The notes: generated by a model from the sequence alone, not told the origin. 64,000 nucleotides of DNA from Candidatus Magasanikbacteria bacterium RIFCSPHIGHO2_01_FULL_33_34 (GCA_001782825.1 MFPS01000008.1:137012-201011), one strand, 5' to 3'; counted from the first letter of the stretch, positions 19,258-47,841 are shown. Made by a program: numbers and translations.

Positions 19258-19665
19258 ATGTTTGAATTTTTAAAAAAATTAAAAAAAGACACAAAAGGAG
19301 CTACTGCTTTATTAACAGTTGTTATTGTTGGTGCAGCTACACTAATAATGGCTGTCAGTGCGTCATATTTAGGATTGGGTGAATTAGATTTGGGCTATAC
19401 TTCACAAAAAGGTGCAGAAACTTTTTTTATAGCAGATGGTTGTATGGAGGAAGGACTTCGTCAATTGAGATTAGATACTGGGTATACTGGTGATACATTG
19501 AGCCTAGGTGATGGATCGTGTATAATATCAGTAGTGTCAAGTGGTAATGATAGAACAATTACAGTGACTGCAACAATGAATGAATACAATAAAAAGTTAG
19601 AAGTTAATTTAACTTTAACTGGGAACGTCATAACAATTAATTCTTGGGTAGAATTATCAAATTAA
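19258..19665 (+). CDS. PilX-like minor-pilin/pilus assembly protein (single N-terminal TM helix, no canonical G-F-T-L-I-E)
   Basis: Hydrophobic N-terminus ATALLTVVIVGAATLIMAV, small beta-rich C-terminal part with two Cys; position inside the pilus operon. Confidence 0.4.
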   Translation: MFEFLKKLKKDTKGATALLTVVIVGAATLIMAVSASYLGLGELDLGYTSQKGAETFFIADGCMEEGLRQLRLDTGYTGDTLSLGDGSCIISVVSSGNDRTITVTATMNEYNKKLEVNLTLTGNVITINSWVELSN

Positions 19666-20879
19666 ATATGCACAAAACATCTGTTGGCTTAGATATTGCT
19701 GATCATACAATTGAAATAATTGAATTGGCAGAAGAAAATGGTAATATAAATGTTTTGAATTTAGGAAATTTTGCTTTGTCACCTAATATTGTTAAAAATG
19801 GTATTATAGAAAATAAAGAAAAACTTGCAGAAGCAATTAAAAAAATTTTTTCTTCAACAAAACCAGCACCAATAACTACCAAAAAGATAATCTTTGCTTT
19901 GCCAGAATCTCAGGTTTATATTCATTCTTTTTATTTAGGTGTTCATGATAAAAAAGACAGAGATGAATTGATTTTGCAAGAAATAAAGTCAAATGTACCA
20001 ATAAAAGCAAATGATTTATCTTTTTCTTATAAGATTATTTTAGAAAGTTCTGAAAAGACTGAGATTATAGCAATTGTTGCTAGCCAAAAGGTAGTAAAGG
20101 AATGGATTAATTTTTTTAAAAGTATAAAAATAGAAGTAGAGGTTTTGGATATTGAAACCCTTGCGGTTTTAAGGGGATTATTTCCAAACAAGATTGAAAA
20201 AATTTTTTGTGTTTTGGATATTGGTTCTAGGACATCGCATATCGCTATTTTTGGTAGTTTGGGTCTATATTATTCTTTTTCTTCTTATGTAGCTGGTGAT
20301 AGTATTACAAAAGCATTAAGCACTTCTTTAGATCTAAAAATTTCAGAAGCTGAATCTCTAAAATTAAAAGAAGGGTTATTGTCAAATGATAAAAAAATAG
20401 TAGAAATAATAAAAAATGAATTAAATAAATTAGTTAAAACTTTAAAAGAATCATTTGACTATGTGAAAGTAGAAAAACAAAAAGAAGTAGAAGAAATAGT
20501 CGTAATTGGTGGTACAAGTAAGCTAAAAGGTTTATTAGAATTTTTGAAAAAAGAATTATCTCAGCCAATTTCAATCGGATCGGTAAAAATTTATGATAAA
20601 AGAATACCGATTATATATGTAGAGGCTTATGGCTTGGCTTTACGAGGATTGGATAAAAAATGGGAAAAAAGTGACTTGGCTTTTTCTTTGGATATAAAAA
20701 AAGAAAAAACAAGAAAAAATGAAATTGTTATAACCAAAGAAAATAATAAAATTAGCCAATTATTTCAATTATTAAAATTTGAAAAAATAGACAAAAAAAT
20801 TCGTAATCAAATACTAATTTTGGTATCAGTTTTATTTTTTGGTGTAGTAATTTTGCTTGTAGTGTCTAGTATGAAATAG
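19644..20879 (+). CDS. pilM: Type IV pilus assembly protein PilM (actin-like ATPase fold) with C-terminal transmembrane anchor; probable true start at 19668 (MHKTS)
   Basis: N-terminal VGLDIADHTIEII (PilM/FtsA-like phosphate-1), later GGTSKL; C-terminal hydrophobic tail ILILVSVLFFGVVILLVV; track start overlaps upstream gene by 22 nt. Confidence 0.75.
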   Translation: MGRIIKLNMHKTSVGLDIADHTIEIIELAEENGNINVLNLGNFALSPNIVKNGIIENKEKLAEAIKKIFSSTKPAPITTKKIIFALPESQVYIHSFYLGVHDKKDRDELILQEIKSNVPIKANDLSFSYKIILESSEKTEIIAIVASQKVVKEWINFFKSIKIEVEVLDIETLAVLRGLFPNKIEKIFCVLDIGSRTSHIAIFGSLGLYYSFSSYVAGDSITKALSTSLDLKISEAESLKLKEGLLSNDKKIVEIIKNELNKLVKTLKESFDYVKVEKQKEVEEIVVIGGTSKLKGLLEFLKKELSQPISIGSVKIYDKRIPIIYVEAYGLALRGLDKKWEKSDLAFSLDIKKEKTRKNEIVITKENNKISQLFQLLKFEKIDKKIRNQILILVSVLFFGVVILLVVSSMK

Positions 20880-20950
20880 ATAATTATAGTAAAAATAGTA
20901 TATATTGTGGATATTGAGGTTAATTAAATTAGCTTTAATAATATATATTA

Positions 20951-20959
20951 TGATATAAT
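20951..20959 (+). promoter_or_regulatory. Extended -10 element TGATATAAT about 45 bp upstream of first tandem pilin gene
   Basis: TGnTATAAT read directly from sequence; weak -35. Confidence 0.3.
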
Positions 20960-21003
20960 GTATTAGTATAAATTGTTTTAAATTTAATTACATAATTAAA
21001 CAT

Positions 21004-21495
21004 ATGAAAAAAATGAAGATGAATGGGTTCACCTTGATTGAACTCTTGATCGTAATTGCAATCATTGCAATCATTGCTGCGGTTGCGTTTGTTGCGCTTG
21101 ATCCTTTGACTCGTTTTAGGGATGCACGGGATTCAAGTAGGTGGTCTGATATATCAGCATTAATAAGTGCTATAAAAGTAGATCAGGTAGATAATAGAGG
21201 TTCTTATTTGTCAGCTATATCGGCTCTTGATACAGGGACTATTTATATGATAGGTGCCGGGTCATCTGCTTGTAATGCTACTTGTGATACTGCTCCAACC
21301 AGTACAAGTGCTTGTGTTAATTTAACAGGATTGGTGACAGAAGGTTATTTAGCAAGTGTGCCAATTAGTCCAAATGGTACTGGTTCGTGGGATTCTGATT
21401 ATACGGGATATACATTAGAGAGATCTACTACTGGGGCACTTACAGTTAGGGCTTGTGAATCAGAAAATAGCAGTGAAATACTATTGCAAAGATAA
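21004..21495 (+). CDS. Type IV pilin (candidate major pilin)
   Basis: MKKMKMNG-FTLIELLIVIAIIAIIAAVAF with Glu at +5; C-terminal Cys pair. Confidence 0.85.
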   Translation: MKKMKMNGFTLIELLIVIAIIAIIAAVAFVALDPLTRFRDARDSSRWSDISALISAIKVDQVDNRGSYLSAISALDTGTIYMIGAGSSACNATCDTAPTSTSACVNLTGLVTEGYLASVPISPNGTGSWDSDYTGYTLERSTTGALTVRACESENSSEILLQR

Positions 21496-21512
21496 AATTT
21501 TTACTTAGTATT

Positions 21513-22061
21513 ATGATAAAAAATAGGAGAAGTGGTTTTACATTGATTGAGCTTTTGATAGTAATAGCAATAATAGCAATTTTGGCAGTAGCAGTTTTTG
21601 TTTTACTAGATCCACTTACTAGATTTCAAGATTCACGCGATGCTGTGCGTTTTAATGATGCCGAGGCTATTGTTAATGCAATTCATTTGCATCAGGTTGA
21701 CAATGGGGGCATGTTTTTGAATGCAATTGCTAGTACCACAATCAATACTGATACTTGGTATATGATAATAGATGGTGGTGGAACTAGTGGTATGAATAGT
21801 GGATGTGATGATACTTATGATGATGGTAATTGTGATGCTTCTATTGTTGATGATGATGACTGTGTTGATTTAGATCAACTTGTTTCTGGCGGTTATTTGC
21901 CGAGTGTACCTATTAGCCCTAATGGTGTTGTTACTTGGGATGATGGTAAACTTAATGGTGATGAGGGGACTGGTTATGCCTTGCGTCATAACAAATATGG
22001 TAGTATTAGCATTCAAGCTTGTGAATCAGAGAATTATGACTCTATTATAGTTACAAAATAA
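21513..22061 (+). CDS. Type IV pilin, paralog of upstream gene
   Basis: MIKNRRSG-FTLIELLIVIAIIAILAVAVF; shares internal motifs with 21004 gene (LDPLTRF.D.RD, ACESEN). Confidence 0.85.
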   Translation: MIKNRRSGFTLIELLIVIAIIAILAVAVFVLLDPLTRFQDSRDAVRFNDAEAIVNAIHLHQVDNGGMFLNAIASTTINTDTWYMIIDGGGTSGMNSGCDDTYDDGNCDASIVDDDDCVDLDQLVSGGYLPSVPISPNGVVTWDDGKLNGDEGTGYALRHNKYGSISIQACESENYDSIIVTK

Positions 22062-22177
22062 CAATAAATTTTATTATATATATTATTAATTTTTGTGATA
22101 AGTCATAAGAAGTGTCATAAAATATATTTGTAAAAATTCACATAAACATAATAATTATAAAAATAATTGAGAATTGT

Positions 22178-22570
22178 ATGAAAGAAAAAATTTTAATCGT
22201 TGAGGATGAAAAAACTTTGCGTAATGCAATTAAAATAAAACTTGATAAAATTGGTTATAAGGTATTGGAAGCTAAAAATGGAAGAGAAGGATTAGAAATA
22301 GCTTTAAAAGAGAAACCTGATTTAATATTGCTTGATATAGTTATGCCTATTATGGATGGAATGAAAATGCTTAAAAGATTGAGGAAAAATAAAGGTTCAG
22401 AACATATATTAGTTATTGTATTAACTAATATATCTGATGCAGAAAAGATTGAAGAAAGTCTTGGCAGTGGAGTATGTGATTATTTAATAAAATCTGATTG
22501 GAAATTAGATGAATTGGTACAAAAAATAAAGGAGAGAATAGATGCTAATTGTATAATAAATAAAAAATAA
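22178..22570 (+). CDS. Single-domain response regulator (CheY/PilH-like receiver) at end of pilus operon
   Basis: VEDEKT, DLILLDIVMPIMDG, 130 aa, no output domain. Confidence 0.85.
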   Translation: MKEKILIVEDEKTLRNAIKIKLDKIGYKVLEAKNGREGLEIALKEKPDLILLDIVMPIMDGMKMLKRLRKNKGSEHILVIVLTNISDAEKIEESLGSGVCDYLIKSDWKLDELVQKIKERIDANCIINKK

Positions 22571-22574
22571 GATT

Positions 22575-22817
22575 ATGAATATAAAGATATATACAACTCC
22601 AACTTGTCCATATTGTGAGCGTGCCAAAGAATTGCTTAATTCAATCAATTTAGAATATAAAGAAGTTGATGTTGAATCTAATCCAGAAGAGAGGGTTAAG
22701 TTGATTGAAGATTATCAATGGATGACAGTGCCAGCAGTATTTATTGATGATAAGCTTGTAGGTGGCTATGATGATTTGGTAAAGATTCATTCTGAAGGAA
22801 AATTATTTACTAAATAA
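22575..22817 (+). CDS. Glutaredoxin-like protein (CPYC active site)
   Basis: YTTPTCPYCERAKELL, 80 aa thioredoxin fold. Confidence 0.75.
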   Translation: MNIKIYTTPTCPYCERAKELLNSINLEYKEVDVESNPEERVKLIEDYQWMTVPAVFIDDKLVGGYDDLVKIHSEGKLFTK

Positions 22818-22896
22818 TTTGTCAACATTTAATTTGATAAATTTAATATAAAAATTAAATATATATTTTATATATAATTAATTTTTAAATTGTAAT

Positions 22897-23127
22897 ATGA
22901 AAGTAGAAATATATTCTACTCCAACTTGTCCATATTGTTTGAAAGCTAAAGAGTATTTCAAGGAAAATAAGGTAGAATTTGTAGAGCATAATGTGGCTGA
23001 AGATCAAGACAGGGGACGAGAGATGGTTGAAAAATCTGGTCAAATGGGTGTGCCAGTAATATTGATAGGGGATGAGGTTGTGGTAGGGTTTAATAAATCA
23101 AAGATTGATAAAGCATTGGGGCTATAA
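22897..23127 (+). CDS. Glutaredoxin-like protein (CPYC active site), paralog
   Basis: YSTPTCPYCLKAKEYF, 76 aa. Confidence 0.75.
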   Translation: MKVEIYSTPTCPYCLKAKEYFKENKVEFVEHNVAEDQDRGREMVEKSGQMGVPVILIGDEVVVGFNKSKIDKALGL

Positions 23128-23162
23128 AGAAACTATATAGAAATATATAGTTTCTTTTTCGG
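23127..23162 (+). terminator. Rho-independent terminator hairpin (AAAGAAACTATATA...TATATAGTTTCTTT + T-run)
   Basis: 14-bp inverted repeat immediately after glutaredoxin stop. Confidence 0.6.
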
Positions 23163-23203
23163 TATTATGATATAATATTGTTATAATTGTAGTAAATATT
23201 TAT

Positions 23204-24931
23204 ATGAATTTTATAAAAAAATTCAAAGTTTTAATTATATTTGTCATAATTTTATTAGCTGTTGTAGGATATTTTTTATTAAAACCAGAAAAACCACCTA
23301 GGATTGATACTGTAAAAGTTGAACTTACAGATTTAAAGCAATTTGTGAGTGTTGTTGGTAATGTAAAAGCTGCAAAAAATGCAGATCTTGCATTTGAAAA
23401 TGGTGGTAAGGTTAGTAAGGTGCACTTTGATGTTGGTGATCATGTTAATGCTGGTGATGTGCTTGCAGAACTTAATGTGGCTGATTTACAAGCTGATTTA
23501 CAACAAGCAAAAGCACAGGTATCAAGTGCGGAAGCAACTTTGGGACAATATAAAGCAGTGCTTAGTGCAGAACAAGCAAGGCTTGACGAAATGAAAAGTG
23601 GGACTCGTCTAGAAGAGATCAAAATTGCACAGACCAAAGTAGACAATGCAAAATCAGATCTGTCTATTGCTAAACTTGATTTGGAAACTACAAAAACAAA
23701 AGCCCAAACAGATTTAGAAAATTTGTATGATGATGTTATAAATACATTAAATGATGGTCATACAAAGGCTGATAATGCTATCAATACTCAACTTGATGAT
23801 TTGTTTACAAATGTAAATAATGTTGATTTTACATTTGAACCAAATAACTCTCAATTGGAAGTCAATGCTCTTACGGCTCGAAGGGATTCATTACTAGAAT
23901 TAACAAAATTACGTACTGAAATTGATAAAGTTCATACTAGTAATTTAGATTTTGATAATGCATTGTCAGTAGGTAAAACTAGTCTTCTCGCTGTAAGATA
24001 TTTTTTGAATTTAGTCGGGGATGTATTGGATGGAGATGTAAGTTTATCAACTGCAACTTTAGCTACTTATAAAACCAATTTGAATACTGCTAAAACAAAT
24101 GTTAATACTGCACTTACTAGTATTTCAAATCTTCAACAGTCAATTTTGGCTCAAAAAAATACAAATATTGATAATATAAATTCTATACAGGCAATTGTAG
24201 ATGGAGCAGAGTTTGATTTGAGATCAGCAGAAGATGAACTTAATTTGAAATTAGCTGGATACACAAAAGAACAAGTTGACGCGCAAACTGCCAAAGTTCA
24301 ACAGGCGGAGGCTAATATAGTTTCACAAAGAGCTATTATTAATCAAAAAAATGCTAGTGTAGAAAGTGCTCAAGCAAAAATAGAAAAAAATATTATACAT
24401 TCTCCTATAAAAGGTGTAATAACTAAACAGGATGCAAAAGAAGGGGAGATAGTATCTGCAAATACTATTGTTATATCAATAATTTCTGAATTAGAATTTG
24501 AAATAGAAGCATATATAACAGAGGTGGATATATCCAAAATAAAGATTGGTAATAAAGCTCAAGTCGTACTTGATGCTTATGGGGATGATGAATTATTTGA
24601 AGCAAGTGTGGTTTCAATAGATCCAGCCGAAAGAGTGATTGAGGGTGTATCAACATACAAAACAACATTACAATTTAGTAATGGAGTTGAAAAAATACGT
24701 TCAGGTATGACAGCAGATTTAGAAATAATGACAAATCATCTGGAGAATATAATCGCAATCCCTCTTAGAGCTGTTTTAAACAAAGATAATAATAAAGTTG
24801 TAAGAAAACTTGTTAATGGTGAAATTGTTTATGAAAATGTTACAACTGGTTTGCGTGGATCAGATGGCAAAGTAGAAATATTAAGCGGTATTAAAGAAGG
24901 CGAGATTATAATTACATTTATAGAAGAATAA
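23204..24931 (+). CDS. HlyD/MacA-family periplasmic adaptor (membrane fusion protein) with unusually long coiled-coil hairpin
   Basis: N-terminal TM helix, split lipoyl-like halves (VGNVKAAKNADLAF... / IHSPIKGVITK), about 290-aa coiled-coil region, beta-barrel C-terminus; 575 aa. Confidence 0.8.
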   Translation: MNFIKKFKVLIIFVIILLAVVGYFLLKPEKPPRIDTVKVELTDLKQFVSVVGNVKAAKNADLAFENGGKVSKVHFDVGDHVNAGDVLAELNVADLQADLQQAKAQVSSAEATLGQYKAVLSAEQARLDEMKSGTRLEEIKIAQTKVDNAKSDLSIAKLDLETTKTKAQTDLENLYDDVINTLNDGHTKADNAINTQLDDLFTNVNNVDFTFEPNNSQLEVNALTARRDSLLELTKLRTEIDKVHTSNLDFDNALSVGKTSLLAVRYFLNLVGDVLDGDVSLSTATLATYKTNLNTAKTNVNTALTSISNLQQSILAQKNTNIDNINSIQAIVDGAEFDLRSAEDELNLKLAGYTKEQVDAQTAKVQQAEANIVSQRAIINQKNASVESAQAKIEKNIIHSPIKGVITKQDAKEGEIVSANTIVISIISELEFEIEAYITEVDISKIKIGNKAQVVLDAYGDDELFEASVVSIDPAERVIEGVSTYKTTLQFSNGVEKIRSGMTADLEIMTNHLENIIAIPLRAVLNKDNNKVVRKLVNGEIVYENVTTGLRGSDGKVEILSGIKEGEIIITFIEE

Positions 24932-24936
24932 ATTAT

Positions 24937-25641
24937 ATGCCTTTGCTTGAAATAAAAGATTTGAAAAAAATTTATTCAATTGATGAGGTTGAAACCTACG
25001 CTCTTCGCGGGGTTTCATTTAATGTTGAGGAAGGTGAATTTATTGCTATTACTGGTCCGTCTGGTTCTGGTAAGTCTACTCTATTACATATATTAGGTTT
25101 TTTAGATAAACCAACTACTGGGGAGTATAAATTTTCTGGAAAAATGATTGATAAATATTCTGAAAATGAATCAGCAGTATTTAGAAACAAAGAAATTGGT
25201 TTTGTTTTTCAATCGTTTAATCTTTTGGCTAGGACAAGTGTTATTGACAATATAAAACTTCCATTAATGTATTCCGATATACCAGAAAAAAATTGGCATA
25301 ATTTAGCAACTAAAGCGATTGAAGAAGTTGGCTTGTCTCATAGAGTACATCATTATCCCTCACAACTCTCCGGTGGAGAAAAACAAAGAACAGCAATAGC
25401 ACGTGCACTTATAACTAATCCAAAGATAATATTTGCTGATGAACCAACTGGTAATTTGGATACAAAGACAGGGGAATCTATTATGGCTATTTTTGATAAG
25501 TTAAATAGAATAAATAGGCATACCCTTATTTTGATTACTCATGAAAAAGAAGTGGCAAATTATGCTGATAGAATTATTCATATACGGGATGGAAAGATTG
25601 AATATGATAGATTAACCAAAAATGGTAAAAATAATATATGA
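24937..25641 (+). CDS. ABC transporter ATP-binding protein, MacB/LolD/FtsE-like
   Basis: Walker A GPSGSGKST, signature LSGGEKQR, Walker B IIFADEPTGNLD. Confidence 0.85.
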   Translation: MPLLEIKDLKKIYSIDEVETYALRGVSFNVEEGEFIAITGPSGSGKSTLLHILGFLDKPTTGEYKFSGKMIDKYSENESAVFRNKEIGFVFQSFNLLARTSVIDNIKLPLMYSDIPEKNWHNLATKAIEEVGLSHRVHHYPSQLSGGEKQRTAIARALITNPKIIFADEPTGNLDTKTGESIMAIFDKLNRINRHTLILITHEKEVANYADRIIHIRDGKIEYDRLTKNGKNNI

Positions 25642-26882
25642 AGATTAGTAGTACATTCAAAATTTCTTTTGTAGCCTTAAATGCCAACAAATTACGATCT
25701 AGCTTGACTATTTTGGGCATAGTTATTGGTATAACTGCTATAATGGTAGTTGTTTCTGTTGGTAGAAGTGCTGAAAATATGATTTTGGGTGAAATTGGTG
25801 GCATGGGTGCTGAGATGATAGTTATTAGACCTGGAAAAGAGCCAAAAGGACCAACTGATATAGCTGGATCACTATTATCAAATTCTCTTAAAACACAGGA
25901 TGTTGAAGCATTAAGAAATAAAAATAATGTACCTTATTTGGAAGATTTGGCTCCGGCTGTGATAGTACCCGGTAGTGTTTCATATTCTGGTGAAACTTAT
26001 ACACCAGTTATTTTCGGTTGGGTGCCGGATTTAATGGTAAAAATGTTTGATATCTATGCCGATGAGGGAACATTTTTTACAGATGCAGATATCAAACAGA
26101 AAGCAAATGTAGTAATAATAGGTGCAAAAGTTAAAAAAGAACTGTTTGGTGATTCTGATGCAGTTGGAAAAAATATCAAAATTAAAAATAAAAGTTTTAA
26201 AGTTGTCAGTACTATTGCCCCTATAGGCCAAGTTGGTTTTTTTAATGTGGATGATATGGTATTACTGCCATATACAACTGCTCAAACATATTTATTAGGC
26301 ATTGATCATTATCATGAAGTGATTGTGATGGCAAAAAGTCCAGAGTTGGTAGATGCTACAGTGGTAGATATAGAAAGAACATTAAGAGAAATGCATAATA
26401 TTACTGATGAATCAAAAGATGATTTTTTTATAGTTACACAGGAAGGTGTAGTTGAACAAGTCAAGACAATTGTTGGTGCGCTTACAATATTTTTGTCAGT
26501 AGTAGTAGCGATATCATTATTAGTTGGAGGAATTGGTATTATGAATATAATGTTTGTATCTGTGACTGAGAGAACTCGTGAGATTGGATTGCGTAAAGCT
26601 ATGGGAGCAACCAAAAAAGATATTATGTTTCAGTTTTTGATTGAAGCAATTTTATTAACTGGTATGGGTGGTTTAATTGGAGTAATTTTGGGGGCTGGTT
26701 TTTCTTATATTGGTTCATTTGCATTGGGACAAGCTATGGGTACAATTGTAAAATTTAGTTTTCCTCTTAGTGCTGCTATTCTTGGTATTTCTGTTTCTGC
26801 TTTTGTTGGATTAGTTTTTGGTTTGTATCCAGCGCGCAAGGCTGCCAACAAAGACGCAATTGAAGCACTTCGTTATGAGTAG
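25638..26882 (+). CDS. ABC transporter permease, FtsX/MacB-like with large extracytoplasmic domain
   Basis: N-terminal TM, about 230-aa extracytoplasmic loop, C-terminal FtsX-type 3-TM bundle (REIGLRKAMGAT). Confidence 0.85.
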   Translation: MKISSTFKISFVALNANKLRSSLTILGIVIGITAIMVVVSVGRSAENMILGEIGGMGAEMIVIRPGKEPKGPTDIAGSLLSNSLKTQDVEALRNKNNVPYLEDLAPAVIVPGSVSYSGETYTPVIFGWVPDLMVKMFDIYADEGTFFTDADIKQKANVVIIGAKVKKELFGDSDAVGKNIKIKNKSFKVVSTIAPIGQVGFFNVDDMVLLPYTTAQTYLLGIDHYHEVIVMAKSPELVDATVVDIERTLREMHNITDESKDDFFIVTQEGVVEQVKTIVGALTIFLSVVVAISLLVGGIGIMNIMFVSVTERTREIGLRKAMGATKKDIMFQFLIEAILLTGMGGLIGVILGAGFSYIGSFALGQAMGTIVKFSFPLSAAILGISVSAFVGLVFGLYPARKAANKDAIEALRYE

Positions 26883-26886
26883 TTTA

Positions 26887-26915
26887 TTGACAGTATAAAA
26901 TATCTAAAATACAAT
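26887..26915 (+). promoter_or_regulatory. Candidate promoter TTGACA-17bp-TACAAT upstream of protease triplet
   Basis: Consensus hexamers read from sequence; GGAG RBS then GTG start at 26971. Confidence 0.45.
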
Positions 26916-26970
26916 AGATATAGGTTGTTTGCGTTCTTTATAATTTTTCATCACAGAATGGAGTACAAAA

Positions 26971-27798
26971 GTGAAAAAAACAAAAATTTATTTACTTTTT
27001 ATTTTAACATGGTTATTGATCGTAATAGTTTATATATTATTGCCAGTACAAACTATAAAAAAAGAAGATTTTAATCTTTATTATAGTGAAGTAAATACAC
27101 AAAGAGTTATTTCATCCACTGCTCAAGTTACAATTTTTAATAATGAAAAAATATATTTATGTACAGCTTTTGCATATAAACGTGAAGGAAATTTATATTA
27201 TTTTGCAACCGCAGCACACTGTGTAGCAGATATGGATGATGAAAACAAAAATATTATTAAACGTTATGATAATGTAATGTTACAAATCTCAGATGATCTT
27301 AATAATTCTGAAAAAGATTCATATATTGCTGAAGTCGTAGGGGTTGGTTATGAACCTGTGGGTGATGATTTTGCGATATTAACAGCAACAATTGATAAAT
27401 ATATACCTTTGTTAGATTTTTCTGGTATTGAGCCTATGTTAGGTAATTGTGTGTTAAATGTGAGCTTTCCAGCTAAGTCTGATGGGAATATATTTATGGG
27501 ATATATAACAAATATAAATTATCAAATAGATATAGAAAGTAAGTCTATCATTTATCATACTGTAGTAGCTAAACTATTTGGTATAGAAATAGCTGGTGGC
27601 GCATCAGGTTCTGCACTTGTTAGTTGTTCATCAGCTAAAGTATATGGTGTTGTAGTAGCCTCTACTGGTAATGAAGTTAGTCTTGTTGCAATTCCCGTTC
27701 AGAAATTTATTGATTTTGAGCAAAAAATAATTAAAAAAGAATATTTATATAAATTAATGCCAAAAGAGCCAGGGTTTTGTCCAATTGATGAAAAATAA
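26971..27798 (+). CDS. Secreted/membrane-anchored trypsin-like serine protease (S1B, glutamyl-endopeptidase-like), paralog 1
   Basis: GTG start; N-terminal TM; catalytic-triad motifs TAAHC (His), DDFAIL (Asp), GGASGSAL (Ser, G-x-S-G-S type). Confidence 0.7.
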   Translation: MKKTKIYLLFILTWLLIVIVYILLPVQTIKKEDFNLYYSEVNTQRVISSTAQVTIFNNEKIYLCTAFAYKREGNLYYFATAAHCVADMDDENKNIIKRYDNVMLQISDDLNNSEKDSYIAEVVGVGYEPVGDDFAILTATIDKYIPLLDFSGIEPMLGNCVLNVSFPAKSDGNIFMGYITNINYQIDIESKSIIYHTVVAKLFGIEIAGGASGSALVSCSSAKVYGVVVASTGNEVSLVAIPVQKFIDFEQKIIKKEYLYKLMPKEPGFCPIDEK

Positions 27799-27853
27799 AT
27801 CAGCGCATCAGTCGTTCTTTATAATTTATCCGATGTAAACAGAGAGGTGAAAA

Positions 27854-28615
27854 ATGCCTTTTTTGAATCATTTCAAAAATGTATTTTTTTGTTTTCTTAC
27901 TTTCTTTATTTTAAATGGTTGCTTACAAAAATCATTTAGACATGATAGATGCATGGTGTGGAAAAATCCGCATCAAGAATACATTATGTTTATGTCAGTT
28001 CCAAAAGTTATCATTTATAAAGAAAAAAATAGTACAGCTTCATGTACCGCATTCCCATACCGTTTTGAGAATAATAAGTATTATTTTGTAACAGCAGCAC
28101 ATTGTGTTGCTGAAGATGATTTAAATACTAAAAAAGTAAAAATCTTGGCTAAAAAGGTGGAATTAGATTTTAGATTATATCCATTTTATAAAACAAAACC
28201 AGTTGAGGCAAAAATCGTAGCTGTTGGTTATAAAGAGGTTGGTGATGATTTTGCTATACTTGAAGTAGAATTATCATTTAATGTTGCATTATTAAAATTT
28301 TCTCATAAAGAAGCTGTGGTAGGAGAATGTGTGTTGAATGTGAGTTATCCTAAAGAGGCAAAAGGAAATATTTTTTATGGGACTATTTCTCAAATAAATA
28401 AGAAAAGTCCACAATTTATAGTTAATTTTGATAATATTAATGATGCACACGGATCCTCTGGTTCTGCAATTGTGTCTTGTGAGTCGAATGAAATATTAGG
28501 TATATTAGTATCTCAACATACTGTAGATAGACGAAATATATACTATATTAAAATTGATGATTTTATAAATTTTGAAAGACAAGTAAGAAAAGGTAAATAT
28601 ACATATTATAAGTAA
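27854..28615 (+). CDS. Secreted trypsin-like serine protease (S1B-like), paralog 2, possible lipoprotein
   Basis: TAAHC, DDFAIL, HGSSGSAIV; N-terminal signal with LNGC lipobox-like motif. Confidence 0.7.
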   Translation: MPFLNHFKNVFFCFLTFFILNGCLQKSFRHDRCMVWKNPHQEYIMFMSVPKVIIYKEKNSTASCTAFPYRFENNKYYFVTAAHCVAEDDLNTKKVKILAKKVELDFRLYPFYKTKPVEAKIVAVGYKEVGDDFAILEVELSFNVALLKFSHKEAVVGECVLNVSYPKEAKGNIFYGTISQINKKSPQFIVNFDNINDAHGSSGSAIVSCESNEILGILVSQHTVDRRNIYYIKIDDFINFERQVRKGKYTYYK

Positions 28616-28648
28616 AAAAATAATATGAAAAAAAACATCGGAAATTAT

Positions 28649-28683
28649 AAGGGCCTTGTTAAAACAAGGCCCTTTGTTATTTG
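28649..28683 (+). terminator. Rho-independent terminator (AAGGGCCTTG-TTAAAA-CAAGGCCCTT + T-rich)
   Basis: 10-bp GC-containing stem after protease paralog 2. Confidence 0.6.
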
Positions 28684-28761
28684 ACATGAAATTATTAATA
28701 AAATACACTAATTAGTGAGTCTGTTCATTAAAATTTATGACATTCAATCAGGAGAAAGACA

Positions 28762-29679
28762 ATGAAATTTTTTGTAGACAAATTTTTAATTTTGATATCC
28801 ACTTTTTTATTTTTTGGGTGTGGTGCATTTATATCAAATACCAAAAAGACAGAACTTGATACGGCAGAGTTATTAATGAATGCTAGTGTAAGGTTACATT
28901 GGCAATTGGTCAGTGGTGGTGAAACACTTGATCAGTGTGGTGCTACCGTAATTGCAAAAAATAATAATAAGTATGAAGTTCTTACTGCGCTTCATTGTGT
29001 AGGAATTTATAATGTAAAAACACAAAAGACAACATTATTTACTACATTATTACCTATTAAATTTGCATTGGTCTTTGAAGATTCAAAAACTACTTTAAAA
29101 AAGACTGTAAATGCAAATGTTATTGCTTATGGCGATATGGCTAAGTTTGAAGATTTTGCCATACTTGAGATAGAAATAGACCATAAAATTAATTTACCAC
29201 CTATTTATAAAGGAAATGAACCATTAAAAATCAATGAACCACTTGCGTTGGTAGTGGCGCCACTTTCTGAGATAGGAAATTTATATTTAAATGCTTATGT
29301 GAGTAAGCCTAGTATTAAAGTAGAATTTGTACTTGATGGTGTTAATAAACAGGGTGCAGTACCAATACAAGTCAGTGGTTTGGGTATTGGTAAAGGTTCA
29401 TCTGGCTCATCAGTGATGAGTATCAAAAAAAATAAAATTGTTGGTGTAGTTTCAATGTCATCATGGAATAATCAGGGACATGTTACACTAATGATGTGTC
29501 CAATTTCCAAATTTAATATTTTTTATTCTAGGTATAAAAAAGGTAATTCAAAAATTCCAAATACATCTGATATATCAGATATAACTTCAATTTGTGAGGT
29601 AAATACTGAAGTGTGTGGTAAACTTTTGGAGGATTTTCAATCTTTGGTCAACATGCAAAAGAATGAGCATAAATTATAG
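28762..29679 (+). CDS. Secreted trypsin-like serine protease (S1B-like), paralog 3 (more divergent), possible lipoprotein
   Basis: TALHCVG (His), EDFAILEI (Asp), GKGSSGSSVMS (Ser); signal peptide ending FFGC. Confidence 0.65.
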   Translation: MKFFVDKFLILISTFLFFGCGAFISNTKKTELDTAELLMNASVRLHWQLVSGGETLDQCGATVIAKNNNKYEVLTALHCVGIYNVKTQKTTLFTTLLPIKFALVFEDSKTTLKKTVNANVIAYGDMAKFEDFAILEIEIDHKINLPPIYKGNEPLKINEPLALVVAPLSEIGNLYLNAYVSKPSIKVEFVLDGVNKQGAVPIQVSGLGIGKGSSGSSVMSIKKNKIVGVVSMSSWNNQGHVTLMMCPISKFNIFYSRYKKGNSKIPNTSDISDITSICEVNTEVCGKLLEDFQSLVNMQKNEHKL

Positions 29680-29821
29680 TGGTACAATACTAGAGCTCTT
29701 GGTTTTCCAAGAGCTCTTACACATATAACAGATTTATAGGATAAATTTTATTTATCATTATTAAAAAATATGTTATACTTAATTAACTTAATTTATTAAT
29801 ATTAAAATAATTTATTTATAT

Positions 29822-31573
29822 ATGAAATCGACTTTGATAAAGAAGACGAAAAAAATGGTGAATTTCACGCCAAATATGGAGAACTATAATAGTATATATA
29901 ATAATCATACACTTGCTGAAGCTAAAAAAGATATAGATTTTTTTAAAGGCAAAATCAATGCAGCTTATAATGCGATTGAAAGACATGCTAATAGTTGGAG
30001 AAAAAATAAGATTGCTTTATATTGGATTGGTGCTGAAGGCGAAACGATAAATTATACTTTTCGTGAGTTAAATGAGCTTTCAAATCAATTTGCAAATTCT
30101 TTACATAGTCTAAAAGTAGTGAAAGGAGACAGAGTCTTTTTCTTTTTAACTAGATTACCACAATTATATTATGGGTTTTTGGGTACCTTAAAAACAGGCG
30201 CAATATCTGGTACTATGTTTGCGGCTTTTGGTCCACAAGCAATTGAAGATAGATTGGGCAATAGTTCAGCAAAAGTAGTGGTTACAGAACTACAATTGTT
30301 CGAACGAATTGCTAGTGTTGCTCCTAAGTTACCACATTTAAAAGTAATTTTGGTAGTGGGGGATCCAAAGAAAGTCGCAAAACTTAAAGTTCCTGGTAAA
30401 AAAGTTATAGCCCTTGATGAACTTTCTGCACAACAATCAAAAGAATACAAAACACTTATGATGAAACCAGATGATCCAGCATTTATGTTGTATACTTCTG
30501 GTACTACTGGTAAACCAAAAGGTGTTGTCCATGCGCACAAAGCTATTATTCATGAACATCTGAGTGCCAAGTATGTATTGGATATCAAAGATGAGGATGT
30601 ATATTGGTGTACCGCTGATCCGGGTTGGGTGACTGGTGTTGCCTATGAAATATTAGGTTCTTGGAGTAATGGTGCTACAGAAGTAATTACAAATGGTAAA
30701 TTTAGCCCAGAAGAGTGGTATAAAATTATTCAAGATTATAAAGTAACAATATGGTATACTGCACCGACAGCTATTCGTATGTTACAAGCATCTGGTGATA
30801 AGTTAGTAAAAAAATATGATTTGTCATCACTTCGTTATTTAGCAAGTGTTGGTGAACCATTAAACCCAGAACCTATCCGTTGGGGACTAAAAGTATTTGG
30901 ATTGCCTTTTCATGACAATTGGTGGCAAACTGAAACTGGTGGTATACTGATAGCAAATTATGCTTGTATGGATATAAAACCAGGTTCAATGGGTAAGCCT
31001 CTTCCTGGTATTACTGCAGAAATTGTGAGTGATAGCGGACAAGTTTTGGGACCAAACAAAGAAGGAAACTTATCCATTAAACCAGGCTGGCCTTCTATGA
31101 TGCAAAAGATATGGATGCGACCAAACAAATACAAATCATATTTTGAACATGGTTGGTATATTTCAGGTGATCGAGCTTTTCGTGACAAAGATGGTTACTT
31201 TTGGTTTATTGGTCGGGCTGATGATGTTATTAAAACATCCGGAGAAAGGGTTGGTCCATTTGAAGTAGAATCAGCTCTTGTAGAACATCCAAGCTGTATT
31301 GAGGCGGGTGTAATTGGCAAACCAGATCCTTTGCGAGGTGAAATTATCAAAGCTTTTGTAAAATTAGCCCCAGGTTTTAAGGGTAGTGAAAATTTAAAAA
31401 AAGAATTACAAAAGTTTATAAAAAGGCATCTTGCGGGTCATGCTTATCCACGTGAGATAGAATTCGTAGACAAATTACCAAAAACTCGTTCAGGTAAAAT
31501 TATGAGACGATTGTTGAAAGCCAGAGAACTAGGATTACCAATTGGGGACACATCAACATTGGAAGAGTATTAA
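29822..31573 (+). CDS. acs: AMP-forming acyl-CoA synthetase, acetyl-CoA synthetase-like
   Basis: AMP-binding motif YTSGTTGKPKGV, WWQTETGG, C-terminal catalytic Lys in SGKIMRR; 583 aa. Confidence 0.8.
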   Translation: MKSTLIKKTKKMVNFTPNMENYNSIYNNHTLAEAKKDIDFFKGKINAAYNAIERHANSWRKNKIALYWIGAEGETINYTFRELNELSNQFANSLHSLKVVKGDRVFFFLTRLPQLYYGFLGTLKTGAISGTMFAAFGPQAIEDRLGNSSAKVVVTELQLFERIASVAPKLPHLKVILVVGDPKKVAKLKVPGKKVIALDELSAQQSKEYKTLMMKPDDPAFMLYTSGTTGKPKGVVHAHKAIIHEHLSAKYVLDIKDEDVYWCTADPGWVTGVAYEILGSWSNGATEVITNGKFSPEEWYKIIQDYKVTIWYTAPTAIRMLQASGDKLVKKYDLSSLRYLASVGEPLNPEPIRWGLKVFGLPFHDNWWQTETGGILIANYACMDIKPGSMGKPLPGITAEIVSDSGQVLGPNKEGNLSIKPGWPSMMQKIWMRPNKYKSYFEHGWYISGDRAFRDKDGYFWFIGRADDVIKTSGERVGPFEVESALVEHPSCIEAGVIGKPDPLRGEIIKAFVKLAPGFKGSENLKKELQKFIKRHLAGHAYPREIEFVDKLPKTRSGKIMRRLLKARELGLPIGDTSTLEEY

Positions 31574-31579
31574 AATTAT

Positions 31580-33376
31580 TTGTTTATATTAAAATTTATG
31601 GGTTGGTTTAATAAAAATAATAAAGCAGAAATTAAGATTAAAAAAAGCGAAGATACAGAAAAATTTATTTCTCCAAATTTCTGTTTTAAGATTGGTGGTG
31701 AAGCAGGTTTTGGTATTATGTCTGCTGGTGTAACTTTTTCAAAAATTGCCAGCCGTTCTGGTTATTATGTATTTGATTATGCAGAGTATCCATCTATAAT
31801 ACGCGGTGGCCACAATGTAATGCAAACATCAATTTCAAGTGAACCTATTCGTTCTCAACTTAGACATACAGATTTATTAGTTGCTTTAAATCAAGAAACA
31901 ATTGATTTGCACAAAGATGAGCTGTTAGAGAATTCTGGAATTATTTTTGATAATGAAAAAGATATGAAGTTGGAGGGTATTCCAAAAGGAGTATCAGAGT
32001 TTGGTATACCAATCAATAAAATTGCCAGAGACATTGGAGGTTCTGAAATAATGAGAAATACGGCTGCATTAGGAGCCGTAATGGCAGTTTTGGGTGGCAA
32101 AATAGGCCACCTTAAAGATTTGATAACAGAAGAATTTAGTAATAAAAAACCAGAAATTATAGAAAAAAATCATTTGGTTTGTCAAGCTGGATATGATTAT
32201 GCTCTTGAGCATTATAAAGATAAAGTAAAAAATGTTTTAAAACAAAAACCAAAATTACCATCTCAAATTGTTATCAGTGGTAGTGAGGCAGTAGCATTGG
32301 GCGCATTGACAGCTGGTTTACAATTTGTGGCAATTTATCCGATGACGCCTATTTCAGGAATATTACATGCATTAGCTCTATATCAAGAAGAATATAAATT
32401 TATATATAAACAACCAGAAGACGAAATCTGTGCCGTAAATATGGCAATTGGGGCGTCTTTTGCGGGTGCAAGAGCAATGACAGCTACTAGTGGTGGAGGT
32501 TTTTGTTTAATGGCTGAAGGATATGGTCTGGCTGGTATTTCTGAAACGCCGATTGTTATTATAGAAGGTATGCGTGGTGGACCAGCTACAGGATTACCTA
32601 CGTGGACTGAACAAGGGGATTTGAGATTTGTTTTGCATGCACATCAGAGTGAATTTCCAAGGATTGTATTGGCAGCAGGGGATATAGAGGAAGCCTATCA
32701 TTTTACTGCCAAAGCTTTTAATTTGGCAGACAAGTATCAAACTCCAGTTGTGGTATTAACAGACAAACAAATTAATGAAAGTCATATGGGTGTTAAGGCA
32801 TTTAATACTAGTGATTATAATATAGACAGGGGTAAAATGTTTTTGACAAAAGATGAAAATTATAAAAGATATGAATTAACTTCAGATGGAATATCACCAA
32901 GATCTATCCCTGGTGTAGGTAATCATTTTGTTGCTAACTCAGATGAACATACAGAGATTGGTTATTCCGATGAGGAGGCAAAAAATAGGCTTGAACAAAT
33001 GAATAAAAGAATGTCCAAGTTGGATACTTGCGCTAAGATGGATATGGAAAAACCAGTTTTGTATGGTCCAAACAAAGCTGATATTACAATAGTTTCTTGG
33101 GGGAGTAACAAAGGAGCAATTTTGGATGCAATAAAAGAATTTAATAATGTAAATTTTTTACATATTACTTGGATGAATCCTTTTCCTTCGGAAGTAGTCG
33201 GTAACATTTTGTCATCGGCAAAATTTGTATTAAATATTGAATGTAATTATACTGGACAAATGGCTAGTTTAATAAAAGAAAAAACTGGTTATGAGGTAAA
33301 TGAAAGTTTTCTCAAAATTGATGGTCGACCAATCTATGCGGAAGAAATAGTCGAAAAAATAAGAAAATTATTATAA
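31580..33376 (+). CDS. 2-oxoacid:ferredoxin oxidoreductase, fused gamma-alpha subunit (two-subunit OFOR type)
   Basis: N-terminal gamma-like domain (IGGEAGFGIMSAG), alpha domain (ISGSEAVALGALTAG...YPMTPIS), 598 aa. Confidence 0.85.
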   Translation: MFILKFMGWFNKNNKAEIKIKKSEDTEKFISPNFCFKIGGEAGFGIMSAGVTFSKIASRSGYYVFDYAEYPSIIRGGHNVMQTSISSEPIRSQLRHTDLLVALNQETIDLHKDELLENSGIIFDNEKDMKLEGIPKGVSEFGIPINKIARDIGGSEIMRNTAALGAVMAVLGGKIGHLKDLITEEFSNKKPEIIEKNHLVCQAGYDYALEHYKDKVKNVLKQKPKLPSQIVISGSEAVALGALTAGLQFVAIYPMTPISGILHALALYQEEYKFIYKQPEDEICAVNMAIGASFAGARAMTATSGGGFCLMAEGYGLAGISETPIVIIEGMRGGPATGLPTWTEQGDLRFVLHAHQSEFPRIVLAAGDIEEAYHFTAKAFNLADKYQTPVVVLTDKQINESHMGVKAFNTSDYNIDRGKMFLTKDENYKRYELTSDGISPRSIPGVGNHFVANSDEHTEIGYSDEEAKNRLEQMNKRMSKLDTCAKMDMEKPVLYGPNKADITIVSWGSNKGAILDAIKEFNNVNFLHITWMNPFPSEVVGNILSSAKFVLNIECNYTGQMASLIKEKTGYEVNESFLKIDGRPIYAEEIVEKIRKLL

Positions 33377-41766: not shown

Positions 41767-42291
41767 ATGAAAAAGATTATAATAGGAGTAGTAAGTTTTA
41801 TCTTTGCAATAAGTATTTTTTTACCAACACAAAATATAAATGCACAAGAAGAGGGTAATGGTGAAATAGAAAAAATTGAATATATTTTGTTCCATCTTGA
41901 AACTTGCCCACATTGTCGTGATGAAATTAAATTTTTGAATAAAAAAATATTACCAAAATATGGAGAATTTATTGATTTGAAGATGTATGAAGTAAGTGAT
42001 GAAAAAAACGGAGATATTTTTCGTCAATATGGAGTTTATTATGATGTTGAAGTTGGAAGTGTGCCTATGGCGATTATAGATGGTGAAATTGTAATGGGAT
42101 ATGGCAATGATAATACTACTGGCAAAACAATAATGGAAATAGTTGAGAGAAAATTGATTGAACATGGTATAAGTATCAGTACAAACGATATTGATGAAAA
42201 TAATAAATCTTCACAGATTTTGTTGTTTGTTTTTATAACTGTAGTTTTAATTATTATAATTATTTTTTCAAAAAAATATTTTAAAAAATAA
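41767..42291 (+). CDS. Membrane-anchored extracytoplasmic thioredoxin-like protein with DsbA-type CPHC motif
   Basis: Signal peptide, LETCPHCRDE in Trx fold, C-terminal TM helix. Confidence 0.65.
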   Translation: MKKIIIGVVSFIFAISIFLPTQNINAQEEGNGEIEKIEYILFHLETCPHCRDEIKFLNKKILPKYGEFIDLKMYEVSDEKNGDIFRQYGVYYDVEVGSVPMAIIDGEIVMGYGNDNTTGKTIMEIVERKLIEHGISISTNDIDENNKSSQILLFVFITVVLIIIIIFSKKYFKK

Positions 42292-42294
42292 TTT

Positions 42295-42582
42295 ATGATA
42301 AATAAAGATGATGTAATTAAGATATTGGAAACTGTATTGGATCCAGAGTTGGGGATTGATATTTGGACAATGGGATTAATTTATGATATAAATATAATCA
42401 ATGAAAATCAGATAAAAATACTGATGACTTATACAACCCCAACTTGTCCAGCTGGTTCTGAAATTCAGCAAAATATGCGTAGCACTTTATCTAAGGCTGG
42501 ATTTGAAAAGATTGATATAAAAGTAACTTTTGATCCATTATGGCAACCATCTGAAGAGCTTCGGGCAGCATTAAGTTCATAA
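42295..42582 (+). CDS. sufT: SufT/DUF59 (MIP18-family) Fe-S assembly protein
   Basis: VLDPELGIDIWTMGLIYDI motif, 95 aa. Confidence 0.75.
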   Translation: MINKDDVIKILETVLDPELGIDIWTMGLIYDINIINENQIKILMTYTTPTCPAGSEIQQNMRSTLSKAGFEKIDIKVTFDPLWQPSEELRAALSS

Positions 42583-42611
42583 TATAATTAATAAATATTT
42601 AAAATAAAAAT

Positions 42612-42872
42612 ATGGCAAATGAATCATCAGCCACAAAAACAAGTGGTAAAATTAGAAAAATTGTGATAGATAGAGATGCTTGTATTGGAGCAAGATCATG
42701 CGTAATAGCAGCGTCTAACACTTTTGAAATGGATGATGAAAATTTAGCTCTTGTAAAGTCTGATGCTAGTAATTTTGATAGTGATGATACTATTATGCAA
42801 GGCGCAGAGGCTTGTCCAGTATTATGTATTCATTTATATGGTGAAGATGGTAAAAAGATTTTTCCAAATTAA
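42612..42872 (+). CDS. Single-cluster ferredoxin
   Basis: CIGARSC ... CPVLCI cysteine spacing typical of mono-cluster [4Fe-4S]/[3Fe-4S] ferredoxins. Confidence 0.7.
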   Translation: MANESSATKTSGKIRKIVIDRDACIGARSCVIAASNTFEMDDENLALVKSDASNFDSDDTIMQGAEACPVLCIHLYGEDGKKIFPN

Positions 42873-42899
42873 TGAATAGCATGAATTAATTTATAAATT

Positions 42900-43049
42900 A
42901 TTCTTTAATAGAATAATTTATAATTAGAGATTATCATTCGCTCCCTGCCTGCCGGCAGGCAGGATTCTCGCTGTGGCTCCGAGGTGATTACCTGTTGTGG
43001 TAATCAAATCCGCTCATAATAATCTCTAATCATTAATTCTATTTTATAT
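42900..43049. mobile_element. MITE-like palindromic element: 11-bp flanking direct repeats, about 40-bp imperfect terminal inverted repeats, GC-rich hairpin core
   Basis: Direct repeats TTTATAAATTA at 42889-42899 and 43050-43060; TIR core ATTAGAGATTAT (42923-42934) / ATAATCTCTAAT (43019-43030); internal perfect palindrome CCTGCCTGCC|GGCAGGCAGG; local GC far above flanks. Confidence 0.4.
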
Positions 43050-43061
43050 TTATAAATTAAT

Positions 43062-43090
43062 AAAATACCACTTAGTGGTATTTTATTTTA
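43062..43090. terminator. Bidirectional terminator hairpin (AAAATACCAC-TTAG-TGGTATTTT) between convergent ferredoxin and NUDIX genes
   Basis: 9-10 bp stem flanked by A- and T-runs. Confidence 0.55.
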
Positions 43091-43502
43091 CGTATTTTCT
43101 AACACTTAGAAAATATTCAGCATCGGCTGGTATAGACAATATATCCATTACTTCATCAATAGGCACCCATTTGACCTCAGCTATATCATATTCAATTTGT
43201 TTCAATTCGTCTTCTTCAGTTTCAAATATATACATGTTTAATGTAATAAATTCATCTGGTTTATAAGAATTAGCTCTCTGATAAGTAGGGAGTTTTTTGA
43301 TAACTTCAACTTCTTTTACACCAGTCTCTTCATATACTTCACGTTTAGCTGCATCCAAAATGTTTTCATTTTCTCGAATTCCACCTTTTGGGAAGCCCCA
43401 TATATTATGATGCATTTTTACTAGCGCAATATGCCTAGTTTTTTTATTGATAAGAATTGCACCAGCATCATCTTTAAAGTTAGAAAAATCTTTATTCTCC
43501 AT
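43083..43502 (-). CDS. NUDIX hydrolase
   Basis: NUDIX box GGIRENENILDAAKREVYEETGV. Confidence 0.85.
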   Translation of the reverse strand: MENKDFSNFKDDAGAILINKKTRHIALVKMHHNIWGFPKGGIRENENILDAAKREVYEETGVKEVEVIKKLPTYQRANSYKPDEFITLNMYIFETEEDELKQIEYDIAEVKWVPIDEVMDILSIPADAEYFLSVRKYVK

Positions 43503-43504
43503 AT

Positions 43505-46144: not shown

Positions 46145-46169
46145 ATTTAGTTAGGTAAGTTTTTAAGCA

Positions 46170-46196
46170 TTAGCACTCATCATACTAGAGTGATAA
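46170..46196. promoter_or_regulatory. CIRCE-like HrcA operator TTAGCACTC-N9-GAGTGATAA upstream of clpB
   Basis: 8/9 + 9/9 match to CIRCE consensus TTAGCACTC-N9-GAGTGCTAA, 26 bp upstream of clpB start. Confidence 0.6.
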
Positions 46197-47834: not shown

Positions 47835-47841
47835 ATTATAT

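Follow-up and report, generated by a model that had tools for sequence, protein, structure and literature searches.

Adjacent but probably separate modules: a MacAB-like exporter and a tandem surface-protease array in a Candidatus Magasanikbacteria genome

When genes for an export pump are directly followed by a row of secreted protease genes, do the two form one system or are they merely neighbours? This question is raised by positions 23204–29679 of a 64,000-nucleotide stretch of DNA, called the window here, from Candidatus Magasanikbacteria bacterium RIFCSPHIGHO2_01_FULL_33_34 (GCA_001782825.1 MFPS01000008.1:137012-201011), an uncultured bacterium of the candidate phyla radiation (CPR). A reading of the window from its sequence alone (the sequence-only reading) had described a tripartite MacAB-like exporter followed by three S1B serine proteases, and had proposed either a dedicated surface protease arsenal or a resistance module in which pump and proteases cooperate. 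All six open reading frames (ORFs) of that description are present:

23204..24931, plus strand: adaptor, a MacA-like membrane fusion protein (MFP) of 575 aa (HlyD_D23, HlyD_3, TIGR01730)
24937..25641, plus strand: ABC ATPase of MacB/LolD/FtsE type, 234 aa, a separate gene from the permease
25638..26882, plus strand: MacB-type permease, 414 aa, its start overlapping the ATPase stop by 4 nt
26971..27798, plus strand: protease Prt1, 275 aa; GTG start with a GGAG Shine-Dalgarno sequence; Trypsin_2 33.4 bits, family hidden Markov model (HMM) 266 bits
27854..28615, plus strand: protease Prt2, 253 aa; Trypsin_2 45.0 bits; near-lipobox ILNGC (Cys23)
28762..29679, plus strand: protease Prt3, 305 aa; Trypsin_2 22.1 bits, family HMM 228 bits; lipobox LFFGC (Cys20)

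We hold with moderate confidence that these genes represent two adjacent, functionally separate modules on a conserved backbone, a generic CPR pump and an accessory array of surface proteases. The pump would be a housekeeping-type MacAB-like exporter found CPR-wide, combining a MacB-type permease and its separately encoded ATPase with an adaptor. The array would be an accessory, lineage-restricted tandem set of catalytically competent trypsin-fold serine endopeptidases, which appears to change through the gain and loss of copies and through rapid sequence divergence. Protease activity, substrates, tethering chemistry, independent transcription and physiological role are what we infer from the evidence given below.

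A variable array on a conserved backbone

Related loci were compared outward by adaptor identity to the window, or by permease identity in the case of L026. Scanning genomes with the adaptor gave L017 as the one true relative, three proteobacterial adaptors at 26–28% identity being set aside, and a metagenome scan with the permease returned one locus, L026. The adjacency of pump and proteases is not peculiar to the window: four relatives keep it, namely L017 (adaptor identity 71%, four protease copies), L011 (70%, four copies), L027 (69%, six copies) and L028 (64%, four copies). L021 carries at least five protease copies on a contig that ends on the pump side. With three copies in the window, the number ranges from three to six over the six array genomes. 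L029 (adaptor 63%) retains the pump as well as the genes for acyl-CoA synthetase (ACS) and 2-oxoacid:ferredoxin oxidoreductase (POR), and its slot holds a uracil phosphoribosyltransferase gene, a 63-aa ORF and a secreted subtilisin. No protease was found at the pump locus of L030 (adaptor 50%) or L026 (permease 40%), and a search for decayed protease remnants, made in intergenic gaps and in the empty slots of L026, L029 and L030, found none.

The array is thus present at four of the seven related pump loci, all four with at least 64% adaptor identity and conserved flanks. The array genomes share one block consisting of a response regulator, two glutaredoxins, the pump, the array, ACS and POR, in which the array is flanked as faithfully by ACS–POR as by the pump. 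Co-occurrence of pump and array beyond this shared synteny was not found. Outside this clade, the family was found at 21 loci, 17 of them on IMG/VR viral contigs and the other four on chromosomal or phage contigs; each has a single protease copy, and none has a MacB or adaptor gene in its flanks. The slot comparison and these pump-free loci together indicate that the array is an accessory insertion and its adjacency to the pump a lineage-specific synteny. Because the adjacency is seen only where the glutaredoxin–glutaredoxin–pump, array, ACS–POR order is kept, it carries little independent weight, and an adjacency within a conserved syntenic block is no evidence for a new pump–protease system.

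The array also appears to have expression signals of its own. A consensus promoter had been pointed out before the proteases, and this site proved to be the top-scoring promoter-like site in 22000–30500 (8.5 kb). Three candidate signals were located in and before the array:

26887..26915, plus strand: promoter-like site TTGACA-17-TACAAT before Prt1, 11 of 12 matches
28649..28674, plus strand: terminator-like hairpin after Prt2, 11-bp stem with six GC pairs and a T-rich tail
28681..28709, plus strand: promoter-like site TTGACA-17-TACACT before Prt3, 10 of 12 matches

The hexamers and spacing of the first site also precede the Prt1 orthologues in L011 (at 9002) and L017 (at 5970). In the window, L011 and L017 the gap between Prt1 and Prt2 is 55–73 nt long and devoid of a promoter motif. 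Strong Shine-Dalgarno sequences precede Prt1, Prt2 and Prt3 (GGAG, GAGAGGTG and AGGAG in 26951–26970, 27834–27853 and 28742–28761, respectively); none was found in the 20 nt before each pump start codon (23184–23203, 24917–24936 and 25618–25637). On these signals, Prt1 and Prt2 would form one transcription unit and Prt3 another, both transcribed independently of the pump.

The two modules further differ in their rate of change. In comparisons of the window with L011 or L017, the orthologous proteases are 36–47% identical (46–47% for the Prt3 orthologues), the pump proteins 70–73% and ACS 87–88%. In a neighbour-joining tree the proteases fall into old orthogroups (the A, Prt1, Prt2 and Prt3 types), which arose before the species separated; a duplication in L028 is recent, and the window has no A-type copy. 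The GC content of the array, 28–31%, is the same as that of its surroundings. Ten contigs of the same population (about 8.4 kb) are nearly identical; three isolated substitutions lie in ACS (two, L006) and the adaptor (one, L010), and concentrated differences fall only in Prt3 (28762–29679). The Prt3 gene of L006 is a frameshifted variant, 98.7% identical with two gaps and called as 277 aa, and that of L009 has one synonymous and three non-synonymous changes in 513 nt. Birth and death of genes combined with fast divergence is the pattern expected for proteins that act on variable external substrates.

These observations bear on the cooperative module, in which the proteases, at the membrane surface, would break down toxins or antimicrobial peptides, or mature a precursor peptide, and the pump would expel the same molecules or the products. 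In a variant, the pump would act as a MacB-type mechanotransmitter that activates the tethered proteases, as FtsEX does with cell-wall hydrolases. Several points speak for cooperation and weigh against two separate modules. The array lies on the same strand right downstream of the pump in five genomes, and the adjacency is kept wherever an array contig reaches far enough upstream (window, L011, L017, L027 and L028). These five genomes, however, share the whole syntenic block and are not independent evidence. No terminator-like hairpin was found after the permease in the motif scan, and read-through from the pump operon is therefore possible. Moreover, the promoter and terminator calls are consensus matches only, and promoter-like sites in the region show no excess over shuffled sequence (62 counted against 55 ± 8 expected). 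Set against this are the conserved promoter of the array, its internal terminator-like hairpin and its second promoter.

Monoderm MacAB-like pumps do confer resistance to antimicrobial peptides (PMC5768738), but pumps of this family are found throughout CPR, also where no proteases accompany them, as in L026 and L030, and the outside-clade proteases occur without the pump. The slot in L029 can be read either way. It holds a gene for a non-homologous 410-aa Peptidase_S8 with a signal peptide (L029 5061–6293), located between the MacAB-like pump and ACS, which is either a replacement of one protease by another or a coincidence at a variable slot; it could hint at selection for a protease beside the pump. 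Finally, sequence change in the proteases is about twice as rapid as in the pump, which is not expected of tightly interacting partners. We therefore regard cooperation as rather unlikely; it stands unsupported rather than refuted, and no discriminating test favoured it.

The exporter

The pump is a split MacAB-type ABC exporter of a kind generic for CPR bacteria, and the family matches agree with the HlyD-family adaptor, MacB-type ATPase and FtsX-like permease with a large extracytoplasmic domain that had been proposed. The adaptor matches TIGR01730 RND_mfp with 167.5 bits (cut-off 94.9) as well as HlyD_D23 and HlyD_3, and the Pfam families YknX_C and Beta-barrel_YknX match its relatives. The ATPase matches ABC_tran in Pfam with 117.4 bits, and Walker A (GPSGSGKST), signature (LSGGEKQR) and Walker B (IIFADEP) motifs are all visible in its translation. 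Its best matches are LolD/MacB-type models (LolD TIGR02211, 249 bits; MacB PRK10535, 223 bits), both under the equivalog cut-offs. The permease matches MacB_PCD (133.3 bits, residues 21–247), FtsX (73 bits, residues 288–406) and, with 224 bits, positions 257–646 of MacB PRK10535, which are the transmembrane and periplasmic part of MacB. Its large extracytoplasmic domain sits between the first and second transmembrane helices. The MacB periplasmic core and FtsX-type C-terminal helices of a MacAB-type (type VII ABC) transporter are thus both present, and a MacA-like MFP is encoded in what is probably the same operon. An identity as LolCDE was rejected: LolD stays below its cut-off, LolC/E matches are weak (40 bits versus 362) and an adaptor gene is present. 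Since a 5-nt gap between adaptor and ATPase and then the 4-nt overlap between ATPase and permease link the three genes, they likely form a single operon.

The coiled coil of the adaptor had been called exceptionally long. An AlphaFold (AF2) model built from 42 sequences (mean predicted local distance difference test score, pLDDT, 88.7) predicts lipoyl and beta-barrel domains, a transmembrane helix at the N-terminus and further helices at 93–196, 216–276 and 283–394, so that about 300 helical residues (93–394) lie between the lipoyl half-domains. The best solved-fold matches of the model are MacA chains of MacAB–TolC, 9qgy_G (E 1.7e-22) and 5nik_D. The length is therefore real in the model, but not the exception: the best 120 adaptor homologues measure 534–633 aa at a query coverage of at least 92%, and their labels include Azam-, Peregrini-, Taga-, Uhr- and Pacebacteria and ‘Patescibacteria group’, among others. 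Judged by these homologues, a long helical adaptor appears to be the norm in CPR/Patescibacteria.

The word tripartite applies in so far as there are three gene products. None of the genes called up to about 10 kb away in either direction encodes a TolC-like outer-membrane factor, a search that did not extend to the remainder of the genome, and we describe the pump as a monoderm-style MacAB-like exporter. In E. coli MacAB–TolC, MacB fuses ATPase and permease, whereas the window has separate genes and no TolC-like gene nearby; MacA remains the best structural match to the adaptor, and the permease aligns to the transmembrane and periplasmic part of MacB.

The closest organisation is that of Spr0693-0694-0695 of Streptococcus pneumoniae and YknXYZ of Bacillus subtilis, in which the ATPase is likewise separate from a MacB-type permease with an extracytoplasmic domain, an adaptor is present and an outer-membrane factor is not (PMC5768738). 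The split of ATPase and permease in the window corresponds to Spr0694/0695 and YknY/YknZ (PMC5768738). In such monoderm pumps the adaptor is a tube leading away from the membrane, and deletion of Spr0693-0695 lowers the minimum inhibitory concentration (MIC) of LL-37 (PMC5768738). For Spr0693, the height of the helical barrel is given as 56 Angstrom (PMC5768738); the helical region of the adaptor here comprises about 300 residues. By analogy with these two systems, the long helical adaptor may form a tube that takes substrate away from the membrane, through an envelope that has no outer membrane. We know of no proteases encoded next to Spr0693-0695 or YknXYZ.

Catalytic residues, family and tethering of the proteases

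Prt1, Prt2 and Prt3 are paralogues with an intact His/Asp/Ser triad, as had been proposed. The catalytic residues are H83/D133/S212 in Prt1, H83/D132/S202 in Prt2 and H78/D131/S214 in Prt3; alignment found them invariant in all 26 array copies from the six genomes and in four outgroup proteins, and no copy has a defective triad. The relationship among the paralogues also stands, Prt1 being 35% identical to Prt2 and 22% identical to Prt3. The gathering cut-off of Pfam PF13365 Trypsin_2 (clan PA), 27.6 bits, is reached by Prt1 and Prt2; Prt3 falls below it and is nevertheless a clear member by the family HMM. This low score would fit pseudoproteases, i.e. catalytically dead binding proteins, but His, Asp, Ser and the GxSG glycine two residues N-terminal of the catalytic Ser are invariant in 26/26 array copies that are otherwise only 20–45% identical, and we consider this reading barely credible.

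Which family do the proteases belong to? The S1B label (glutamyl-endopeptidase/exfoliative-toxin type) of the sequence-only reading did not survive. When the family profile was compared with PDB sequences, all 60 matches listed were HtrA/DegP/DegS-type (S1C), with a best E of 2.7e-11. The AF2 model of Prt2 (pLDDT 87.8, predicted template modelling score 0.82) consists of a signal peptide and a protease domain, with no room left over. Its best 50 Foldseek matches are HtrA1, DegS, DegP, DegQ and Deg2 chains, one S1C domain of RsgI9 and one unnamed Yersinia serine endoprotease; the HtrA/Deg domains match with E of about 1e-11, 13–21% identity and template modelling scores of about 0.7–0.8 on the target. 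None of these 50 entries is named S1B, and no NCBIfam S1B model matched at E≤0.1. A search of PDB with the single Prt2 sequence returned chance matches only. The order His–Asp–Ser on a trypsin fold, which the proteases do have, is common to all of family S1 and does not discriminate.

The histidine motif reads TA[AL]HC in the array, with a further Cys 19–20 residues upstream. TAAHC with its adjacent Cys is the histidine motif of chymotrypsin-type enzymes, and S1B enzymes typically have a motif of the TN[KR]H[VI] type without adjacent Cys or disulfide. On both grounds, the nearest sequence and fold relatives being HtrA/DegS/DegP and the histidine motif not being that of S1B, the S1B assignment was rejected.

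The Cys pair comprises Cys64/Cys84 in Prt1 and Prt2 and Cys59/Cys79 in Prt3. A Cys about 20 residues upstream of the catalytic His and a Cys right after it are conserved in the 26 copies and four outgroups, with a Cys-to-Tyr change in L017 as the sole exception. We take this C...HC pair to resemble the histidine-loop disulfide of chymotrypsin-type enzymes. Prt2 has a second Cys pair at 159/209, and the C-terminal tail of Prt3 contains Cys.

HtrA, DegP, DegS and DegQ are thus the closest solved relatives of the catalytic domain, and they likewise act outside the cytoplasm. The array proteases differ from them in the Ser motif (G[AS]SGS versus GNSGG in HtrA), in the C...HC pair and in lacking the C-terminal PDZ domain: Pfam gave no PDZ match at E≤0.1 in Prt1, Prt2 or Prt3 (253–305 aa). 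HtrA enzymes are also built as trimer-based oligomers with regulated activation loops; the models made here are of monomers. As they have no PDZ domain, the array proteases are not canonical HtrA either, and by profile and model they are best named PDZ-less, HtrA-like members of Trypsin_2. Two likely annotation errors are corrected by this analysis, S1B to PDZ-less HtrA-like and the ‘exceptional’ adaptor to the CPR norm.

The kinship with HtrA raises the possibility of envelope quality control, that is, housekeeping proteases degrading misfolded exported proteins. The nearest sequence and fold relatives and the predicted location outside the cytoplasm are in line with it, yet the proteases have no PDZ domain and are short, the array is missing from the close relatives L029 and L030, which is unlike a core function, and they carry a conserved Cys pair that canonical HtrA, to our knowledge, lacks. 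HtrA proteases are conserved single genes, whereas the array is tandem, fast-evolving and variable in copy number, with three to six copies and orthologues just 36–47% identical. Because of the patchy distribution, the variable copy number and the fast divergence, an HtrA-like housekeeping role is distinctly unlikely.

The N-termini suggest that the proteases stay at the cell surface. PROSITE PS51257 (a lipobox Cys at 15–35 after an uncharged stretch, and K/R within the first seven residues) is passed by 15 of the 26 array copies. Two lipobox-like N-termini had been claimed. Prt3 (Cys20) passes, and Prt2 narrowly fails because position -2 is Asn and residues 1–7 contain neither K nor R, though its orthologues carry the true lipoboxes LFAAC and FAGC. 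Prt1 has a hydrophobic N-terminal anchor without Cys, and MKK..FTWLL is conserved across its orthogroup. The outgroup proteins of the family have ordinary signal peptides. Prt3, and probably Prt2, would thus be held by lipid modification and Prt1 by an uncleaved signal anchor. In our proposal, Sec exports the proteases, which would then remain tethered on the outer face of the membrane. A dedicated surface protease arsenal, the first of the two interpretations offered from the sequence, fits the intact triads, the lipobox or anchor N-termini, the fast divergence and the variable copy number.

Relatives, possible roles and neighbouring genes

The protease family is small: 172 of 1.84 billion cluster representatives match it at E≤1e-30, rising to 500 at E≤1e-10. 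Its nearest relatives outside CPR are phage-borne; they are 28–34% identical and have a signal peptide and the same C...HC, D and GSSGS motifs. At L014 2501–3253 and L024 5184–5954, one protease gene lies between the small and large terminase genes and the other right after the large terminase gene. Both contigs also have a His_Phos_1 gene, and the 17 IMG/VR viral contigs (L031–L047) have one copy each. On L014 and L024, a secreted trypsin-like protease is encoded within the phage packaging region.

Could the array be mobile or phage-derived cargo? It would then have entered horizontally and serve in conflict, by attack on competitor or host envelopes or by phage-related surface remodelling, and not in nutrition. 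The phage-borne relatives, two of them (P0009 and P0017) beside large-terminase genes, the copies on viral contigs, the small size and patchiness of the family, and the position of the array in a variable slot of a conserved backbone are all consistent with cargo. None of the six genomes has phage, integrase or transposase genes beside the array, however, its GC content fits the surroundings, and the orthogroups are old within the clade, so that we consider a cargo origin very unlikely.

Tandem arrays of this kind have precedents. The spl operon of S. aureus (SplA-F) encodes up to six tandem paralogous secreted trypsin-fold proteases with intact triads (PMC5061998, PMC8765433). The Spl proteases are S1B enzymes of a pathogen, whereas those of the array are nearest to S1C by profile and fold and belong to an uncultured CPR bacterium. 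Number varies in both cases, as spl gene number differs between S. aureus strains. The Spl proteins are released and are not known to have lipid or anchor tethering or a disulfide; the array proteases carry lipoboxes or anchors and a Cys pair by the catalytic His. A second comparison is the immunoglobulin protease system MIB-MIP of Mycoplasma, whose genes likewise occur as tandem surface-protease genes in a reduced-genome bacterium. Prt3 shows a weak local match round its catalytic serine to NF045841 (19.7 bits, E 5.6e-4), a resemblance and not membership; an identity as MIP was rejected against the cut-off of 125 bits, and the array has no MIB partner.

For the array as an accessory set of surface proteases, the role would be surface or extracellular proteolysis, i.e. 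peptide harvesting or the cutting of host, partner or competitor surface proteins. CPR bacteria are generally described as auxotrophic and are thought to depend on other cells. Few of the surface molecules through which CPR bacteria such as the groundwater Candidatus Magasanikbacteria contact other cells have been identified, and a clade-specific, fast-changing array of intact, tethered proteases could reasonably be proposed to serve in peptide harvesting or in contact with a partner; it offers concrete proteins for expression and testing. A more far-reaching version sees diversifying lipid-anchored surface proteases in an arms race of an epibiotic or symbiotic Magasanikbacterium, cutting host or competitor surface proteins, with ancestry shared with phages and a possible dependence on the adjacent MacAB-like nanotube through mechanotransmission of the FtsEX–hydrolase kind. 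It would explain the three to six variable copies, the 36–47% identity of orthologues and the polymorphism confined to Prt3; taken as a whole, we consider it decidedly doubtful.

A literature search found no earlier description of the protease array or of a pump–protease pairing in CPR bacteria. The distinguishing details are the lipid or anchor tethering, the C...HC pair, the HtrA-like affinity without PDZ and the phage-borne relatives. Both modules are otherwise of well-known kinds, and the practical significance is modest.

Several neighbouring features were noted as well. Just upstream of the pump lie tandem glutaredoxin-like genes with CPYC motifs (22575–22817 and 22897–23127), found at the same position in L011, L027 and L028, and before them a response regulator with a receiver domain only (22178–22570). 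A DsbD-type gene follows about 5 kb downstream of the array. To connect the glutaredoxin and DsbD-type genes with the Cys pairs conserved in the exported proteases would be speculation. On the other side of the array, from 29822–33376 onward, come the AMP-forming ACS and then POR (alpha/gamma and beta); together with extracellular proteases, this flank could form a neighbourhood for peptide or amino-acid fermentation. A type IV pilus set occupies 19644–22061; it includes a PilM-like gene and two or more genes for N_methyl pilins (21004–21495 and 21513–22061).

In L017 (Ca. Magasanikbacteria RIFOXYC2_FULL_40_16), the 689-nt gap between the A-type and Prt1-type genes (5367–6055) is full of GC-rich palindromes, although the genome around it is AT-rich. 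One example is GCCCCGCTGTACAGCGGGGCGC, and the core CCCCGCTGTACAGCGGGG is present twice. The palindromes look like repeats of the repetitive extragenic palindrome (REP) or miniature inverted-repeat transposable element (MITE) type, or like stacked terminators; Rfam gave no match in the window or in L017, this gap included. In the window itself, GC skew is positive to about 42 kb, dips at 44–46 kb and is steadily negative from about 52 kb, with a cumulative maximum at about 50–52 kb. The pattern over 42000–52000 could reflect a switch of strand or orientation, or a replication landmark.

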